NCBI GenBank assembly: GCA_036377055.1
Contig: DASUZD010000007.1
Location: forward strand, 1 to 61,665
Direction: 5' to 3'
DNA length: 61,665 bases
From: Gaiellaceae bacterium
GTDB taxonomy: Bacteria; Actinomycetota; Thermoleophilia; Gaiellales; Gaiellaceae
Position numbers and translations under genes: made by a program. This document shows, one piece after another, positions 12,150 through 22,792 of this stretch. Under the pieces are notes generated by a model that was given only the letters and a program-made list of their open reading frames with translations, did not search any database and was not told the origin of the DNA. Each line of letters begins with the position of its first letter. The stretch's first letter is position 1.

Positions 12150-13523
12150 CTACGAAGCCGCGGCGAGGCGCGGGCGCGGCTCCGGCGCCGGCACAAGGAT
12201 CTGGCCGGTCTCCATCGCGCGCTCGAGGGCGCCGACGGCGTCGGGGCAGAACTGGATCCCGGTCGCGCCGCGGATCTCCGCGAGCGCGAGCGCAGGCTCG
12301 AAGCCGGCACGGTAGACGCGGTCGGTGACCATCGAGTCGAGCGCGTCCGCGAGGTGGACGACGCGCGCGAGGAGCGGGATGTCGTCGCCCCGAAGGCCAT
12401 CGGGATAGCCGCTGCCGTCCAGCCGCTCGTGGTGGTGGCGGATGATCGGAACGGCCGCGTCGAGGAAGCCGAGGCGCTCGATGATCTGGGCCCCTTCCTG
12501 GGAGTGGGTCTGCATGATCTTCCACTCCTCCGCGGTCAGCCGTCCGGCCTTGAGGAGGATCGCGTCGGGGATCGCGATCTTGCCGATGTCGTGCAGGAGC
12601 GCCGCCTGGGCGAGGACCTCGAGCTCCTCCGCGTCGAGGCCGAGCTCCGCGCCGATCGCGAGCGAGATGTGGCGGACTCGCCGCGAATGACCGGCCGTGT
12701 ACGCGTCGCGCGCGTCGACCGTCGCTGCGAGACCCTCCATCGCCGCGCGCGAGCGCTCTCTGAGCAGCTCGTTCGCGTCCTGGAGCGAGACGTTCTGGCG
12801 CTGGATCGTGTCCGACGCCCGCTCTAGCTCGCCGGCGCTGCGCTGGAGGTAGTAGATGAGCATGAGCGGCGCCAGCGCGAACGGCGCGATCCACCGCTCG
12901 ACGCCGCCGAGGACGGCGAGCGAGACGCCCATGGCGCTGAGCGAGAAGTCGATCCAGAGATCCTCGACCGTGAAGAGGCGTGTCTCCCTCGGGCCGACGC
13001 GCCGGGCCGCCTGGAGCATCGCCGTGAGCAGAAGCCTGTTCACCACGAGGAAGGTGACGGTCGCCGCGAGCCCGCTCAGGAGGAGCAGCGGCGCACCTGT
13101 CGCCCGCGCCGCCCAAGCCGCGGCGAGGCTCGACACGACGTAGTTGCAGATGTTGAAGGTCTGGACGTACCAGCGGTACCGCCGGCGGATCCAATCCGGG
13201 ATGTGCTGGATCACGCACATGAGCACCAGGAGCGGCGTCGGCAGAAGGAGCGCCCCCGCGATCACGAAGACGAGCGCGGCGTGGAAGACCTGGTGACGCG
13301 ACGGCTTCGGGAGCGCAAGGACCTGCGTCAGTGCCGCTGGGATCGCCAGCGAAGCGAAGAGAAGCCAGCTCGAGGCCGGAACAGGCGCCTCGAATCCGAC
13401 GCCGGCACTCCACGCCGAGATCGCGACGATGACGAACAGCACCGCGAGCCCAGGGGCCGGAAGGCCGTCGACGGCGAATGCGCGACGACGCCGATGGAGA
13501 GAAGTGTCCGCAGCTTCGACCAT
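12150..13523 (-). CDS. Membrane-anchored HD-GYP domain phosphodiesterase
   Basis: HDIGKIAIP...HHERLDGSGYPDGL is an HD-GYP signature, and the N-terminal half has about 6-7 TM helices. I take the ATG at 13523. The upstream part of the ORF is not protein-like. Confidence 0.85.
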   Translation of the reverse strand: MVEAADTSLHRRRRAFAVDGLPAPGLAVLFVIVAISAWSAGVGFEAPVPASSWLLFASLAIPAALTQVLALPKPSRHQVFHAALVFVIAGALLLPTPLLVLMCVIQHIPDWIRRRYRWYVQTFNICNYVVSSLAAAWAARATGAPLLLLSGLAATVTFLVVNRLLLTAMLQAARRVGPRETRLFTVEDLWIDFSLSAMGVSLAVLGGVERWIAPFALAPLMLIYYLQRSAGELERASDTIQRQNVSLQDANELLRERSRAAMEGLAATVDARDAYTAGHSRRVRHISLAIGAELGLDAEELEVLAQAALLHDIGKIAIPDAILLKAGRLTAEEWKIMQTHSQEGAQIIERLGFLDAAVPIIRHHHERLDGSGYPDGLRGDDIPLLARVVHLADALDSMVTDRVYRAGFEPALALAEIRGATGIQFCPDAVGALERAMETGQILVPAPEPRPRLAAAS

Positions 13524-13623
13524 GGCAGAGGCGCGGGGAGATCGAGGTTGCGCCCCTACGCGATATAGACGCGTCCAAAAGTGCGTGCCTCCCCCGTTCG
13601 CGGGAGGAAAACGACTGCCGTAA

Positions 13624-13716
13624 CCCCCCCGGTAGGGGGATGATCGCGAGCCGAGTCGCTGCTTAATCGATGGAGGACGTGTGCGTTTTTGCGGCGACTC
13701 GAAGGAGGTGACGCAC
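13624..13716 (+). promoter_or_regulatory. Structured leader, copy 1, upstream of sORF-1
   Basis: The hairpin is CCCCC-GGTA-GGGGG (13626-13639). A 7-bp stem TGTGCGT (13680-13686) / ACGCACA (13711-13717) encloses the SD GAAGGAGGTG and pairs with the A of the AUG. The same architecture recurs at 16282-16370. Confidence 0.45.
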
Positions 13717-13815
13717 ATGCTGCGGTGGAACGTTCGCTACGTCAGGGCGGTCATCGCTCTCGGCGCGTTCGCGGCTCTGCTCGTGGATGCCGGGGCGGGA
13801 CTTCGTTGGTCGTAG
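13717..13815 (+). CDS. 32-aa single-TM miniprotein (sORF-1): MLRWNVRYVRAVIALGAFAALLVDAGAGLRWS
   Basis: A strong SD precedes the ATG. A paralogue lies at 16371-16469. The two differ by about 10 synonymous third-position changes and only a few conservative replacements, which argues for translation under purifying selection. Confidence 0.55.
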   Translation: MLRWNVRYVRAVIALGAFAALLVDAGAGLRWS

Positions 13816-13874
13816 CAAATTCGAGCGGCGGGGCCGGACCTCTCCGGCGTCGGCCCTGATCCGCCCACCCTGCC

Positions 13875-15710
13875 GTGCCTTCGATGAGCCCGCGCATGCC
13901 GACCCAGATCGGTGGATTCCCGATCCGCCTCTTTGCGTACGTGGCCCTCGCGGTCAGCCTCGCCGTTCCGGCGGTGCTCGTGGCACTGGTGGAGCTGGCG
14001 CTGAAGCCACCGTCGGCGGCCGAAGGCGCCGGGATCGCGCTCTTCCTCATGCTCGCGCTCGCCGCGGATTTCCACCCCGTGCCCCTCGACGAGGAGGGCA
14101 ACGAGGTCTCGCTTGCGTTCGTCTTCATCGTCGCCGTTCTCCTGATCTTCGGCTGGCACGTCGCCGTCCCGATCGCGGCTGTCAGTGTCCTGGCTCCTGA
14201 GCTCGCGCGTGGGCGACCGCCTCTTCGCGCAGCCTTCAACAGCGCCGTCTACACGCTCGCCGCTCTGGCTGCGCTCGTCCCGAGGCTTGCCCTCGGCTTT
14301 CTGCCGGGGGACGCGGCCGAGCGCGTAACTGCGGCCGCCTTTCTCTGCGGAGCCGTGTACGTCGTCATCAACGTCGCGCTCGTCGCAGGCGCGGCATCGC
14401 TCGCACAGGGCGTCGCCTACCGCCGAGTCTTCAGCGAGAACCTCCGCTACGGCGGCGCAGCGTTCGGGATCATGGCGTTCTTCGCCGCTTTGGCGGCGAA
14501 TCTTTGGCACCTGAAGCCGCTACTGCTCGTCTTGCTCGCAGGGCCGTTGTTCACCGTGACGCTCTACCAGCGCAGCGTTCTGCGCTCGCGCATCGCGCTC
14601 CGCGACGCGAACACGGACAACCTGACGGGACTGGGAAACCATCGGGCGTACCAGGCGGCGCTGCGGACGAGCGTGGAGGAGGCCCGAAAGACGGGCGCAC
14701 CCCTGTCGCTCTGCCTGCTGGACATCGACGATTTCAAGCGCCTGAACGACGGCTACGGGCACGGGCTCGGCGACGAGGTGCTCGTGCGCATCGCCGGCCT
14801 GCTGAAACAGGCCGAGGGGACGCAGGCCTTCCGGTTCGGCGGCGACGAGTTTGCTGTCCTCGTCCCGGTTGGCGATGCCGTCGCCTGCAGCCGATTCGAG
14901 CGTGTCCAGCGCGAGCTTGCCGGAGCGGAGCTCTCACCCGACGGTCCGGTCACGATCAGCGTCGGCATCGCTTCCTTCCCGGCACATGGCCGCGACGCGG
15001 AGGCGCTACAGGAGGTGGCCGACGGGGCGCTCTACTGGTCGAAGCGCCACGGGAAGAACCGTGCCTGCATCTACAGCCCCGGGATCGTCCGCGTGCACTC
15101 GACCACAGACCTCGAACGCGAGGCCGAGCGCGCGGCGCGTCTTCGCGCCGCGACGAACCTCGTGCGGTTCCTCGACGCCAAAGATGCTTCGACGGCCAAC
15201 CATTCCGAGATCGTCGCGACGCTGGCGGCCGCGATCGGCGAGCAGCTCGATCTCGACGCGGACACGATCGCGCAGCTGCGACTCGCGGGGCTCCTGCACG
15301 ACCTCGGGAAGATCGGGATCCCCGAGCGGATCCTGCAAGCCCCACGGGGGCTCACCGGAGACGAGTTCGCGATCGTCCGCCGTCACCCTGAGATCGGCCA
15401 TTCGCTGCTCGAGGGGATCGACCTCGCGCCGGTCGACGACTGGATCCTCCAGCACCACGAACGCTGGGACGGCCTCGGCTACCCGAACGGCCGTGTCGGC
15501 GCGGAGATCCCGCTCGGGGCGCGGATCATTCACGCTGCGGACGCCTTCGAGGCGATGACGGCGGGACGCACTTACCGCGGCGCCCGCTCGACCGAAGACG
15601 CGCTCGCGGAGCTCCAGGACCAGGCTGGAGCGCAGTTCGATCCCGACGTCGTCGCCGCCTTCGAGCGCTACCTCGCCCGAGTCGACGAGCGCCTTCTCCT
15701 CTCCGCCTGA
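13875..15710 (+). CDS. Membrane sensor with GGDEF and HD-GYP domains
   Basis: The N-terminus has multiple TM helices. The diguanylate cyclase core is D.F.RLNDGYGHGLGDEVL...FRFGGDEFAV. The HD-GYP signature is HDLGKIGIP...HHERWDGLGYPNG. The start could be 13875 (GTG), 13884 or 13896 (ATG). Confidence 0.85.
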   Translation: MPSMSPRMPTQIGGFPIRLFAYVALAVSLAVPAVLVALVELALKPPSAAEGAGIALFLMLALAADFHPVPLDEEGNEVSLAFVFIVAVLLIFGWHVAVPIAAVSVLAPELARGRPPLRAAFNSAVYTLAALAALVPRLALGFLPGDAAERVTAAAFLCGAVYVVINVALVAGAASLAQGVAYRRVFSENLRYGGAAFGIMAFFAALAANLWHLKPLLLVLLAGPLFTVTLYQRSVLRSRIALRDANTDNLTGLGNHRAYQAALRTSVEEARKTGAPLSLCLLDIDDFKRLNDGYGHGLGDEVLVRIAGLLKQAEGTQAFRFGGDEFAVLVPVGDAVACSRFERVQRELAGAELSPDGPVTISVGIASFPAHGRDAEALQEVADGALYWSKRHGKNRACIYSPGIVRVHSTTDLEREAERAARLRAATNLVRFLDAKDASTANHSEIVATLAAAIGEQLDLDADTIAQLRLAGLLHDLGKIGIPERILQAPRGLTGDEFAIVRRHPEIGHSLLEGIDLAPVDDWILQHHERWDGLGYPNGRVGAEIPLGARIIHAADAFEAMTAGRTYRGARSTEDALAELQDQAGAQFDPDVVAAFERYLARVDERLLLSA

Positions 15711-15716
15711 CCCGGC

Positions 15717-16292
15717 ATGGCACTCGTCTACCCGCTCCTGCTCGGCCTCTTCCTCGCGCCCCTGCTTGGCGGCGACCTCCGACGCCTGGCCGACCTGCGC
15801 CTGCGGGCGACCCGCCTGATCTACCTGGCGCTGACGCTCCAGCTCGTCGCGTTCCCCGTCGGCGCCATGCCTTGGCAGCCATCCGATACCACAGCCGTCG
15901 TCCTCTGGCTCGCGTCCTATGCCTGCCTCGCCGCAGCGACCGGGATCAACATCCGCCTGGGTGGCATGCCGCTGATCGCCGCCGGCCTGGTCGCGAACCT
16001 CGCCGCGATCGTCGCCAACGGCGGTCATATGCCGGTCCTGCCGGCCGCGATGCGCGCCGCCGGCCGCTCGTACCACGTCCACTTCAACAGCGCCGCGGCT
16101 TCGGCGCCTCACCTTCCCTGGCTCGTCGACCGCTGGGCTGTGCCCGACTGGATCCCCCTCGCCAACGTCTTTTCGGTCGGCGATGTCCTCATCGCACTCG
16201 GCGGCGTCTTGTTTCCGCTCGTGGCGACAGGTGCATGCCGGCTCCCAGCGTCACGGGCTGCGGGAGCCGAGGCAAGGCTTTCCCCCCGGTAG
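15717..16292 (+). CDS. DUF5317-like integral membrane protein (copy A)
   Basis: The pattern LGGDLRRLA.L.L....LI.LAL.LQL......ANGGHMPV......SVGDVLIALG matches my memory of DUF5317. It starts 7 nt after the upstream stop. Its TAG stop sits in the loop of the CCCCC/GGGGG hairpin of leader copy 2. Confidence 0.7.
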   Translation: MALVYPLLLGLFLAPLLGGDLRRLADLRLRATRLIYLALTLQLVAFPVGAMPWQPSDTTAVVLWLASYACLAAATGINIRLGGMPLIAAGLVANLAAIVANGGHMPVLPAAMRAAGRSYHVHFNSAAASAPHLPWLVDRWAVPDWIPLANVFSVGDVLIALGGVLFPLVATGACRLPASRAAGAEARLSPR

Positions 16293-16370
16293 GGGGATGA
16301 CGCCGCCGGCGATCGCACCTACATCGAGGATGTCGTGTGCGTTTGCGGCGATGAAAAGGAGGTGACGCAC
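16282..16370 (+). promoter_or_regulatory. Structured leader, copy 2, upstream of sORF-2
   Basis: It has the same CCCCC-GGTA-GGGGG hairpin (16283-16296). It also has the same TGTGCGT (16336-16342) / ACGCACA (16365-16371) stem around the SD AAAGGAGGTG. Confidence 0.45.
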
Positions 16371-16469
16371 ATGGTTCGCTGGCAAATCCGATACATCAGG
16401 GCAATGATCGCCCTCGGCGGCTTCGCAGCGCTGCTCGTCGACGCGGGCGCGGGGCTGCGCTGGAAGTAG
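16371..16469 (+). CDS. 32-aa single-TM miniprotein (sORF-2): MVRWQIRYIRAMIALGGFAALLVDAGAGLRWK
   Basis: It is a paralogue of sORF-1 with the same length and the same SD context. A GC-rich hairpin (GGGCCGG / CCGGCCC, 16485-16511) follows it. Confidence 0.55.
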   Translation: MVRWQIRYIRAMIALGGFAALLVDAGAGLRWK

Positions 16470-16529
16470 CACCCTGACGCTGAAGGGCCGGCCCTCGAGC
16501 TCCACCGGCCCTCTGCCGAAGTAGTAGAA

Positions 16530-17129
16530 ATGGTCCTCGTCTATCCGCTCGTCGTCGGCCTCCTCGTCGCGCCCCTGCTCGGCGGCGACCTGAGGAAGCT
16601 CGCCCAACTCAGGCTGCGCGGCGTCTCGCTCCTCTACCTCGCGCTCGGCCTCCAGCTCGTCGCGTTCCCCGTCGGCGCCCTTCCGGTGCGGGTGGGCGAC
16701 TCGACGGCCGTCGTCCTCTGGCTGCTGTCGTATGGATTGCTGGCCGTCGCGACGGTCTTGAACATCCGTCGCGCGGGCCTTCCGCTGATCGCAGCCGGCG
16801 TGGCCGCCAACGTGGCCGCGGTCGTCGCGAACGGAGGCCACATGCCCGTGCTCCCGGAGGCCATGCACGCGGCGGGCTACGCCTACGGGGTCCACTTCAA
16901 CAGCGCGGCGCTCGCGAGCCCGCATTTCGCGTGGCTTGTCGACCGCTGGGCCGCGCCTCGCTGGCTCCCGGGAGCGAACGTCTTCTCGCTCGGCGACGTG
17001 CTGATCGCGCTCGGCGGCCTACTCTTCCCGCTCGGCGCGACAGGCGTCTTACGGCGACTGCGGTTGCGCCTGCCTGGCTCCACGCGGCAGCCGGTGTTGC
17101 AGATCCTGGAGGCAAAGCGCGAGGCTTGA
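16530..17129 (+). CDS. DUF5317-like integral membrane protein (copy B)
   Basis: It is a full-length paralogue of 15717-16292 (LGGDLRKLAQLRLRG...ANGGHMPV...SLGDVLIALG). Confidence 0.7.
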   Translation: MVLVYPLVVGLLVAPLLGGDLRKLAQLRLRGVSLLYLALGLQLVAFPVGALPVRVGDSTAVVLWLLSYGLLAVATVLNIRRAGLPLIAAGVAANVAAVVANGGHMPVLPEAMHAAGYAYGVHFNSAALASPHFAWLVDRWAAPRWLPGANVFSLGDVLIALGGLLFPLGATGVLRRLRLRLPGSTRQPVLQILEAKREA

Positions 17130-22418: not shown

Positions 22419-22511
22419 TTAGCCGCCCCAGCTGGAGAACACGATCACCTTGCTCACCTCCCGAGGCTCCGGCGCAATCTGCTGAATGGTGTTCGCGGGC
22501 GTCTTCTTCAT
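22419..22511 (-). CDS. 30-aa peptide gene 1: MKKTPANTIQQIAPEPREVSKVIVFSSWGG
   Basis: An ATG-initiated 30-codon ORF ends in TAA and has its own terminator. The last 13 codons are nucleotide-identical to those of gene 2, and the ATG context GCGCCATCGAGATG is conserved. There is no strong SD before the ATG. An internal SD plus GTG gives an alternative 9-codon ORF (see findings). Confidence 0.5.
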   Translation of the reverse strand: MKKTPANTIQQIAPEPREVSKVIVFSSWGG

Positions 22512-22699: not shown

Positions 22700-22792
22700 C
22701 TAGCCGCCCCAGCTGGAGAACACGATCACCTTGCTCACCTCCTTGGGGCGGTCTGCCGCGACTCGTGCTGTTCTGTCGGCGGTCGTCGTCAT
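22700..22792 (-). CDS. 30-aa peptide gene 2: MTTTADRTARVAADRPKEVSKVIVFSSWGG
   Basis: It has the same length, the same ATG context and an identical 42-nt 3' block (22701-22742 = 22420-22461). Its N-terminal 17 codons are almost completely diverged. It has its own terminator. Confidence 0.5.
   Translation of the reverse strand: MTTTADRTARVAADRPKEVSKVIVFSSWGG

Follow-up and report, generated by a model that had tools for sequence, protein, structure and literature searches.

Two similar units, each consisting of a conserved leader and a short open reading frame (sORF) of 32 codons, are found on contig DASUZD010000007.1 of a Gaiellaceae bacterium (assembly GCA_036377055.1), among genes for membrane proteins of cyclic di-GMP (c-di-GMP) turnover and of the family DUF5317. 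The stretch analysed, here called the window, is 61,665 nt long, and coordinates are those of its + strand. Both units lie on this strand, at ~13626-13865 (unit 1) and ~16283-16511 (unit 2), and have the same order of elements: a hairpin with a C5 and a G5 arm, the motif GATGA, a variable segment of ~20 nt, an AT-rich box, a 9-bp stem whose loop contains the Shine-Dalgarno (SD) sequence, the sORF, and a GC-rich hairpin. The hairpins of the leader are denoted P0, P1 and P3; W1 and W2 refer to the sORFs, or copies, of units 1 and 2. An earlier reading of the same DNA (the original prediction) had described this shared architecture, and on inspection of the sequence all of the described elements are present where it had placed them. 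They include the TAG stop codon of the preceding gene, DUF5317-A, which falls (16290-16292) in the loop of the P1 hairpin of unit 2. The features of the units are listed here.

13588..13607, + strand: hairpin P0 (CCTCCC ... GGGAGG), found only in units behind a divergent HD-GYP gene
13626..13643, + strand: unit 1 hairpin P1, CCCCC-GGTA-GGGGG, with GATGA (C-run 13624-13630, CCCCC 13626-13630, GGTA 13631-13634, GGGGG 13635-13639, GATGA 13639-13643)
13644..13670, + strand: unit 1 variable stretch and AT-rich box CTTAATCGA (13662-13670), from the leader alignment
13678..13719, + strand: unit 1 stem-loop P3; CGTGTGCGT (13678-13686) can pair with ACGCACATG (13711-13719, including the AUG), and the loop holds TGCGGCGA (13690-13697) and the SD AAGGAGGTGA (13702-13711)
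13717..13815, + strand: sORF1, 32 aa, MLRWNVRYVRAVIALGAFAALLVDAGAGLRWS, type 1 (orthologues precede GGDEF-HD-GYP genes)
13826..13865, + strand: GC-rich hairpin after sORF1, GGCGG-GGGCCG ... CGGCCC-TGAT-CCGCC, no U tract; the SD-less GGDEF-HD-GYP gene is next
16283..16300, + strand: unit 2 hairpin P1 with GATGA (CCCCC 16283-16287, GGTA 16288-16291, GGGGG 16292-16296, GATGA 16296-16300)
16301..16327, + strand: unit 2 variable stretch and AT-rich box CTACATCGA (16319-16327)
16334..16373, + strand: unit 2 stem-loop P3; CGTGTGCGT (16334-16342) can pair with ACGCACATG (16365-16373), and the loop holds TGCGGCGA (16344-16351) and the SD (16356-16365)
16371..16469, + strand: sORF2, 32 aa, MVRWQIRYIRAMIALGGFAALLVDAGAGLRWK, type 2 (orthologues directly precede DUF5317 genes)
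16485..16511, + strand: GC-rich hairpin after sORF2, GGGCCGG ... CCGGCCC; the ATG of the SD-less DUF5317-B is at 16530

The core block common to the units is CGTGTGCGT-T(3-5)-GCGGCGA, followed by the perfect SD AAGGAGGTGA and then by ACGCACATG. A covariance model of the leader finds only two matches in the window, the two units themselves, with 111 and 105 bits. Of four amendments to the earlier description, two concern the stems. The stem around the start codon, given as 7 bp, is 9 bp long, as a G.U and a C-G pair extend it so that the whole AUG is covered. The GC-rich hairpins after the sORFs are both present, but in unit 1 the family comparison favours an outer stem, GGGCCG/CGGCCC (13831-13856) extended by GGCGG/CCGCC, over the inner CCGGA/TCCGG that had been named. 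The P0 hairpin is kept as CTTCCCC-N5-GGGGAGG in the loci L008-L015, where a U.G pair is possible only in + strand RNA; unit 2 retains only its 3' arm, GCGGGAG. The Logan assembly of one soil run, an independent source, contains both units and the junction of DUF5317-A, unit 2 and DUF5317-B with zero differences.

The sORF family

Homologous loci were reached by several routes. A search with the 44-aa form of the sORF, as called by gene callers, led to seven metagenome proteins and from these to their contigs; a back-translated DNA pattern for LLVDAGAGLRW yielded only 3 metagenome contigs; and further contigs were reached via DUF5317 homologues (50-77% identical) and via one distant peptide. 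The resulting set comprises 24 loci (L001-L024), several of them near-duplicates, with ~10 independent sequence types that have enough flanking sequence. In 185,579 representative genomes, both a tblastn-confirmed scan with the peptide and the pattern LLVDAGAGLRW came back empty; therefore the lineage is not among these genomes, at least by the exact motif. The source names of the DUF5317 homologues are Gaiellaceae and Solirubrobacteraceae, i.e. Thermoleophilia.

Frame, length, start and stop are kept in this set, with open reading frames of 29-42 codons at the same position in L001-L024. The ratio of non-synonymous to synonymous substitution rates (dN/dS) is 0.09-0.22 over 21 pairs. Between W1 and W2, dS is 1.49 and dN 0.156; the roughly ten synonymous differences counted originally become, by the Nei-Gojobori method, 16.5 synonymous and 9.5 non-synonymous differences (7 amino acids). 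Each window sORF clusters with orthologues of its own type. Peptides of type 1 have RWS or RWG as their last residues and are encoded before GGDEF-HD-GYP genes; those of type 2 have RWK and are encoded directly before DUF5317 genes. Judged by these alignments, the sORF is a genuine gene under purifying selection, and the two copies in the window are old paralogues (dS ~1.5). The view of a selected peptide is thus upheld, with translation itself presumed.

Searching 1.84 billion representative proteins with a profile gave 19 clusters (50% identity) that share SGAGxRW and an RW anchor at either terminus. The family consensus is M-x-R-W-x-x-R-[YF]-[VIL]-[KR]-A-...-L-G-A-[FL]-x-[AS]-L-[LA]-V-x-[SA]-G-A-G-x-R-W-x, and all matches are unnamed 'hypothetical' metagenome proteins. 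Neither sORF, nor any of three relatives, matches a family in Pfam-A or NCBIfam.

The peptide reads as R3-W4, ~20 hydrophobic residues and R30-W31, and the same pattern is seen in the sequences of the 19 clusters. An Arg-Trp pair is thereby placed at both interfaces, with W4 and W31 27 residues apart and extra positive charge on the N-terminal side. Small residues form a stripe on one helix face at i, i+4, i+8 and i+12 (G16, A20, D/S/G24 and G28); faces of this kind, with i, i+4 spacing, are used for helix-helix packing. From this pattern, the peptide looks like a single membrane-spanning helix, which is presumably translated and inserted into the membrane.

The start codon follows from the comparison of loci. 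The 44-45-aa version of the sORF given by gene callers was rejected, as its upstream extension shifts frame among loci (one, L008, keeps the GCGGCGA nucleotides in another frame); the extension is not conserved as protein, and therefore the ATG behind the SD is the start codon. An upstream open reading frame beginning at the ATG of GGGGGATGA was also rejected, being 2, 8, 22 or many codons long in different loci.

A weak likeness was noticed between the helix of the unit 2 sORF, IALGGFAALLVDAGA (16404-16454), and the last transmembrane helix of DUF5317, LIALGGLLFPLGATG (16998-17048). The idea that the sORF is a split-off last DUF5317 helix (the two share IALGG) was dropped, the hhalign comparison being not significant (E 0.025, probability 2%).

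A strain variant is present in another soil run, on a contig that covers 13482-14152 and is 96.6% identical. It has zero differences across 13673-13816, which spans the sORF entirely along with P3 and the SD; the preceding 125 nt hold 8 substitutions and one deletion, and 15 changes are listed in the 336 nt that follow. This pattern hints at a constraint on synonymous sites too.

Linkage to c-di-GMP and DUF5317 genes

The genes around the units are the following.

12150..13523, - strand: divergent membrane-anchored HD-GYP gene (Pfam HD_5 9e-37); its start at 13523 is kept in relatives
13550..13571, no strand assigned: conserved 22-nt block GCGCCCCTACGCGATATAGACG, between the divergent HD-GYP start (13523) and the leader
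13875..15710, + strand: membrane-anchored GGDEF and HD-GYP protein (c-di-GMP synthesis and breakdown), 3' of unit 1 (Pfam GGDEF 3e-33, HD_5 3e-39)
15717..16292, + strand: DUF5317-A (Pfam PF17248 1e-24)
16530..17129, + strand: DUF5317-B, 3' of unit 2 (Pfam PF17248 7e-24)

DUF5317-A and DUF5317-B are 72% identical. Regulator genes flank the locus, with an XRE-cupin gene upstream and a gene of the SARP/AfsR type (Trans_reg_C, BTAD, AAA_16, TPR) directly downstream.

The association with these genes holds in both search directions, and the claim that the peptide belongs to a c-di-GMP/DUF5317 locus is well founded. Starting from the peptide, GGDEF-HD-GYP and DUF5317 genes, or DUF5317 alone, are found downstream wherever the contig is long enough. 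Starting from DUF5317 (homologues 50-77% identical), one to three sORFs lie upstream in all six distinct loci, in several of which (L017, L022) the sORF had not been called by gene callers. Homologues of the peptide beside DUF5317 or HD-GYP genes, for which a search had been suggested originally, are seen on metagenome contigs; the tblastn-confirmed scan of the genome collection added none.

Tandem copies occur in some loci. Three sORFs of 29, 38 and 38 aa follow one another in the Gaiellaceae metagenome-assembled contigs L018-L020 (2472-3093), and two, of 32 and 42 aa, in L023 (6001-6332). The gene order in these contigs is GH38, sORFs, GGDEF-HD-GYP, DUF5317, truA, rplQ, rpoA. Each tandem copy has its own SD region and downstream hairpin, and several were missed by gene calling.

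No SD is recognisable before the GGDEF-HD-GYP and DUF5317 genes that come after the sORFs, either in the window (13884 and 16530) or in the equivalents of L013, L017, L019 and L023. The contrast between these SD-less genes and the perfect 10-nt SD of the sORFs makes coupling or re-initiation across the hairpin possible.

The leader and the predicted start-codon hairpin

The leader alignment comprises 15 leaders from different samples, a set that is small and closely related. Forty-seven columns are invariant. W1 and W2 are identical over P1 and GATGA (~20 nt), over CGTGTGCGTTT..GCGGCGA and over AAGGAGGTGACGCACATG, despite a dS of ~1.5. Since these blocks are identical although synonymous sites are near saturation, the conservation of the leader is not in doubt; by this sequence measure, the blocks are conserved far beyond neutral expectation.

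The stem of P1 is kept in the 15 leaders (90.7% paired) while its loop varies (GGTA, GTCG, ATCG, TGCC, TGTC). In L016, two C-to-U changes in P1 keep wobble pairs, and there is one A.G mismatch. The stretch that follows has a constant length, 20-22 nt after GGGGGATG. Its sequence is free, and shuffled controls reveal no structure beyond chance in this 'variable segment'.

The SD is perfect in that all ten of its bases can pair with the 3' end usual for 16S rRNA. AAGGAGGTGA occurs only three times in the window. All members, including the distant ones, have (C)TGCGG 9-12 nt before the SD, and GGAGGTGA with a start codon 4-7 nt later; the short SD core of the family may be written UGCGG, N9-12, GGAGGUGA, N4-7, start. 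Every sORF is followed by a strong hairpin, which starts 10-17 nt from the stop codon and has a sequence that differs by subfamily (GGGGCCGG, GGGGGAGGGC, CCCCC-GUAC-GGGGG, GGUGGAGCCG). A scan for intrinsic terminators found none after either window sORF, the stems being strong and the tails not U-rich; the corresponding hairpins of L017 and L022 have U-rich tails.

The predicted energy of P3 is -16.3 kcal/mol in unit 1 and -15.4 kcal/mol (z -2.1) in unit 2. The duplex is more stable than shuffled controls, with p of 0.0003-0.025 overall (0.0017 for unit 1 and 0.025 for unit 2). Across the 15 leaders P3 is 96.3% paired, and its changes are one-sided only. Most of these changes keep the pairing: a G.U becomes A-U opposite the U of the AUG, and the GTG start of L009 gives U.G. 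The innermost pair is broken in the subgroup L002-L006. The G.U pairs of P0, P1 and P3 fit + strand RNA only, and RNAalifold recovers P3 together with P1. It had been proposed that the ribosome-binding site is sequestered in this fold. This is correct for the spacer and the whole AUG, which are paired, and not for the SD, which is unpaired in the loop.

That the leader could not originally be assigned to a known riboswitch class agrees with the database searches. No Rfam family matches anywhere in the window at gathering thresholds, and at E<=10 the region 13400-16700 gives only a chance CRISPR-DR29 match inside a coding region, with neither c-di-GMP-I nor c-di-GMP-II. On the sequence evidence, the leader is a conserved element with a credible start-codon hairpin, and a riboswitch is not supported.

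Several further candidates were set aside. An unusual occlusion of the initiation region was dismissed: compared with 600 random ATG/GTG positions, the SD is paired less than average. A start-codon helix common to the whole family was suggested by copy 1 of L019 (CACGAGA/UCUCGUG in place of P3, three apparent double changes in the model alignment) and is not claimed here, as the duplex energies of six distant leaders do not exceed shuffles (Fisher combination of p ~0.1). A 'P2' hairpin, which to the eye appeared in every variable spacer as a small palindrome of differing sequence and resembled covariation, was rejected, such hairpins being expected in a 20-nt GC-rich sequence (shuffles p 0.07-0.74). 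On inspection, GAUGA does not have the consensus geometry of a K-turn or C/D box, nor TGGCAC in L008 that of a sigma-54 site.

A proposed membrane peptide and translation-limiting leader

The reading that we prefer, and to which we give a probability of roughly 50%, is that each unit encodes a membrane peptide which works with the membrane-bound c-di-GMP module and whose translation is limited by a 5' hairpin. The product would be a 32-residue single-pass peptide with the pattern M-x-R-W, a hydrophobic small-stripe helix and [SA]-G-A-G-x-R-W-x. It would act in the membrane as a subunit or regulator of DUF5317, of the transmembrane domain of the GGDEF-HD-GYP protein, or of both, and this partnership would feed into c-di-GMP turnover. 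In the mRNA, the maximal SD AAGGAGGUGA would be displayed in the loop of the 9-bp hairpin (~-16 kcal/mol), with the spacer and the AUG in the stem, so that translation may be limited by, or conditional on, opening of the stem (a constitutive or a conditional brake). The hairpin after the stop codon may allow the peptide message and the SD-less genes downstream to reach different levels, as a partial terminator, as a barrier that stabilises the upstream RNA, or through re-initiation. What the sequences show is the gene, the purifying selection on it, its linkage to these neighbours, the conserved blocks of the leader and their potential to pair; translation, insertion into the membrane, the partner (from gene order), an action of the leader as RNA and any trigger are inferred.

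A number of observations weigh against this reading. Compensatory double changes are seen in 0 of 14 pairs, covariation measures equal those of shuffled alignments, and the covariation term of RNAalifold is 0 (15 leaders). A stem with no covariation had been named originally as part of what would refute the claim, and for a regulatory structured RNA this is the outcome here: the helices can pair (91% and 96%) with no compensatory change in either. The missing covariation reflects a lack of variation and not broken pairs, and in so small and closely related a sample it does not disprove the structure. Being spacer plus start codon, the 3' arm of P3 is under constraint in any case and unable to vary freely. 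Pairing of the start codon is high, not extreme, against the 600 random ATG/GTG positions of this GC-rich DNA, and amounts to only 0.21 for W2 if 90 nt of context are folded. In distant members the start-codon helix has p of 0.11-0.58 against shuffles, and local anti-SD hairpins are visible by eye. A search for transcript, ribosome-profiling (Ribo-seq) or protein evidence found none: the runs that hold the region are of soil DNA or of unrecorded kind, with a contig depth of 2-5. Gene order is the only ground for a physical partner, and the AlphaFold model of DUF5317 (pLDDT 77) has no fold match in the PDB (E>=1.6), hence no structural relative that would hint at a function.

In a bolder form of the same idea, the peptide would be dedicated to a DUF5317/GGDEF-HD-GYP complex, as its regulator or subunit, and its synthesis would be gated by a new cis RNA switch (P1 ... 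UGCGG ... SD loop/AUG stem) that senses c-di-GMP, temperature or a protein. We regard this as speculative and rather unlikely. If true, c-di-GMP turnover in Thermoleophilia would be set by a feedback loop between a small protein and a new RNA element.

Alternative explanations

Part of the evidence on the leader could be explained at the level of DNA. The upstream half, with GGGGGATGA, a fixed spacer and the AT-rich box (TTAATC/TACATC), would be a promoter, and CCCCC-N4-GGGGG an operator, for instance for the adjacent XRE-cupin or SARP/AfsR-type regulator, with the mRNA starting just before P3. This would account for the distance from GATGA to the AT-rich box, which is fixed at 20-22 nt in the 15 leaders while its sequence is free and has no structure beyond chance. 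The box is also the sole AT-rich patch of the region, L016 keeps GGGGGATGC though most of its P1 5' arm is lost, and regulator genes flank the locus. However, a T at position 6, essential in the sigma-70 -10 element together with an A at position 2, is missing from every variant of the box (TTAATC, TACATC, TAAATC and TACACC). A sigma-70 consensus scan of 13300-16800 is empty (other sigma factors being outside this test), the variation in P0 and P1 (U.G, C-to-U opposite G) is tolerated by RNA pairing but not by a DNA palindrome, and unit 2 sits within an operon, 78 nt behind a stop codon. We consider this explanation doubtful, at perhaps one chance in several; what the preferred reading says of the peptide could stand alongside it. 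Less probable still is a riboswitch of a new class, with the start-codon stem opening or closing in response to a ligand such as c-di-GMP or a related signal. Conserved non-coding blocks 5' of an occluded start codon in a c-di-GMP locus would be expected of it; UGCGG is present 9-12 nt before the SD in every family member, and in unit 1 GAGUCGCUGC can pair with GCGGCGACUC as an alternative that competes with P3. This pairing is not kept in unit 2 or in the relatives, however, and there is no conserved multi-helix junction, the middle 20 nt being unconstrained. The distant members carry different, simple local anti-SD hairpins instead, and the lack of covariation and of any Rfam match, the two c-di-GMP classes included, makes such a riboswitch improbable.

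Other explanations concern the sORF. It could be mainly a cis-acting leader peptide, whose translation, or a stall at GAG(L/W)RW-X-stop, controls the downstream hairpin and hence read-through or re-initiation into the SD-less genes. The most invariant part of the peptide is indeed its last 8-14 residues, right before the stop, and every unit has a strong hairpin 10-17 nt further on, between an sORF with a maximal SD and genes with none. Yet the whole peptide is conserved, including the N-terminal RW and the small-stripe hydrophobic core, in the manner of a membrane helix anchored at both interfaces. A chain of 32 residues would still be in the exit tunnel at termination, which makes insertion sensing in the style of MifM or SecM impossible, and tandem arrays of 2-3 copies would be odd for an attenuator; we judge a purely cis-acting role unlikely. 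The small size, hydrophobicity and single membrane helix of the peptide, a strong SD combined with a locked start codon, and multiple and tandem copies with a hairpin each would also suit modules like type I toxin-antitoxin systems, with a small hydrophobic toxin possibly controlled by antisense RNA. Selfish modules would not be expected to stay strictly syntenic with a single kind of operon in lineages whose peptides are <50% identical; a motif scan found no antisense promoter or terminator, and Pfam and NCBIfam gave no match (a dedicated toxin or defence library was not scanned). This origin appears very improbable. That the similarity of the units is a remnant of recent duplication or gene conversion, with functionless non-coding blocks, is contradicted by data already at hand and is hardly credible. 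Both units have GGTA as the loop of P1, where most orthologues have other loops, and the half P0 of unit 2 (GCGGGAG) would mark a rearrangement breakpoint; but synonymous sites are near saturation, each sORF groups with its own orthologues, and the same blocks are invariant in the leaders from different samples.

Comparison with known systems

In the pairs MgrB-PhoQ, AcrZ-AcrB, KdpF-KdpABC, MgtS-MgtA and CydX-CydAB, a small membrane protein modulates a larger one to which it binds. The peptide resembles MgrB, AcrZ, KdpF, MgtS and CydX in having about 30-50 residues and one predicted helix, in being encoded beside or within the operon of its presumed partner, in being missed by gene callers and in being conserved as protein. 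It differs in that it has no sequence relation to them (Pfam/NCBIfam) and that its presumed partners are DUF5317 and GGDEF-HD-GYP proteins, with the interaction suggested by gene order.

A stem encloses the start codon of the MS2 coat gene (de Smit and van Duin), while in the RNA thermometers ROSE and fourU the SD is paired. The leader has in common with these hairpin-closed starts, and with translational riboswitch platforms, a predicted stem of ~-16 kcal/mol that contains the start codon directly beside the SD. Unlike ROSE and fourU, it exposes the SD in the loop, and it matches no Rfam family. The c-di-GMP-I (GEMM, RF01051) and c-di-GMP-II (RF01786) riboswitches share with it a context of c-di-GMP genes and a position before an open reading frame, but the architecture is different, with no model match at E<=10 and no aptamer supported by covariation.

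Intercistronic hairpins set differential expression within operons, as in the puf operon and, through repetitive extragenic palindromic (REP) elements, in malEFG, and the terminators of high-GC Actinobacteria are poor in U tracts. Here too, a stable GC-rich hairpin stands between a short first cistron, putatively strongly translated, and weakly initiated genes. The window hairpins lack a U tract, while those of L017 and L022 have U-rich tails, and a role of this kind would be putative here. TnaC, SpeFL, MifM and SecM are regulatory leader and arrest peptides. The likeness to them consists of a short upstream reading frame, an invariant C-terminal motif just before the stop and a downstream hairpin; in contrast to them, the sORF product is conserved over its whole length, including both RW anchors, is too short to emerge before termination and has no known arrest motif.

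The sORF family and the leader are absent from Pfam, NCBIfam, Rfam and the searched literature, while the kinds to which they would belong, a small membrane protein and a hairpin-closed start, are known. In the literature searched there is no mention of DUF5317 or PF17248, and no small membrane-protein partner of DUF5317 or of GGDEF-HD-GYP enzymes is described. Should DUF5317 or the enzyme's transmembrane sensor domain prove to bind the peptide, this would offer a first handle on the function of DUF5317 and a new example of a small protein that controls second-messenger turnover. Small membrane proteins are systematically missed in annotation, and several copies here had no gene call. The leader is a compact test case of how a very short gene may be expressed at a level unlike that of the SD-less genes behind it. 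Practical value is limited by the lineage (Gaiellales and other soil Thermoleophilia), which is almost wholly uncultured.

Other features of the region

The 22-nt block between the divergent HD-GYP gene and the leader has the form GCGCCCC(A/T)(T/A)CGCGATATAGACG and is nearly invariant in the 7 homologous intergenic regions in which a unit diverges from an HD-GYP gene. From this conservation, the block at 13550-13571 probably contains shared promoter or operator elements; the sigma-70 consensus scan gave no site in it.

DUF5317-B and its homologues have invariant polar motifs (ANGGHMP, NS, LVDRW and NVFSxGD) inside predicted membrane helices. A supposed likeness to the motifs of signal peptidase II had no support in a profile search of PDB sequences and was dropped.

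Elsewhere in the window, two tandem open reading frames of 30 codons lie on the - strand at 22700-22792 and 22419-22511. They encode MTTTADRTARVAADRPKEVSKVIVFSSWGG and MKKTPANTIQQIAPEPREVSKVIVFSSWGG, with an identical 14-residue C-terminus, and are preceded by a duplicated sequence (..cttcagcg..ctgccagcat.gcgccatcgagATG); the third AAGGAGGTGA of the window lies inside one of these reading frames. The pair has no match in NCBIfam, and by its sequence could represent precursor-like peptides, of the ribosomally synthesised and post-translationally modified (RiPP) type, or leader peptides.

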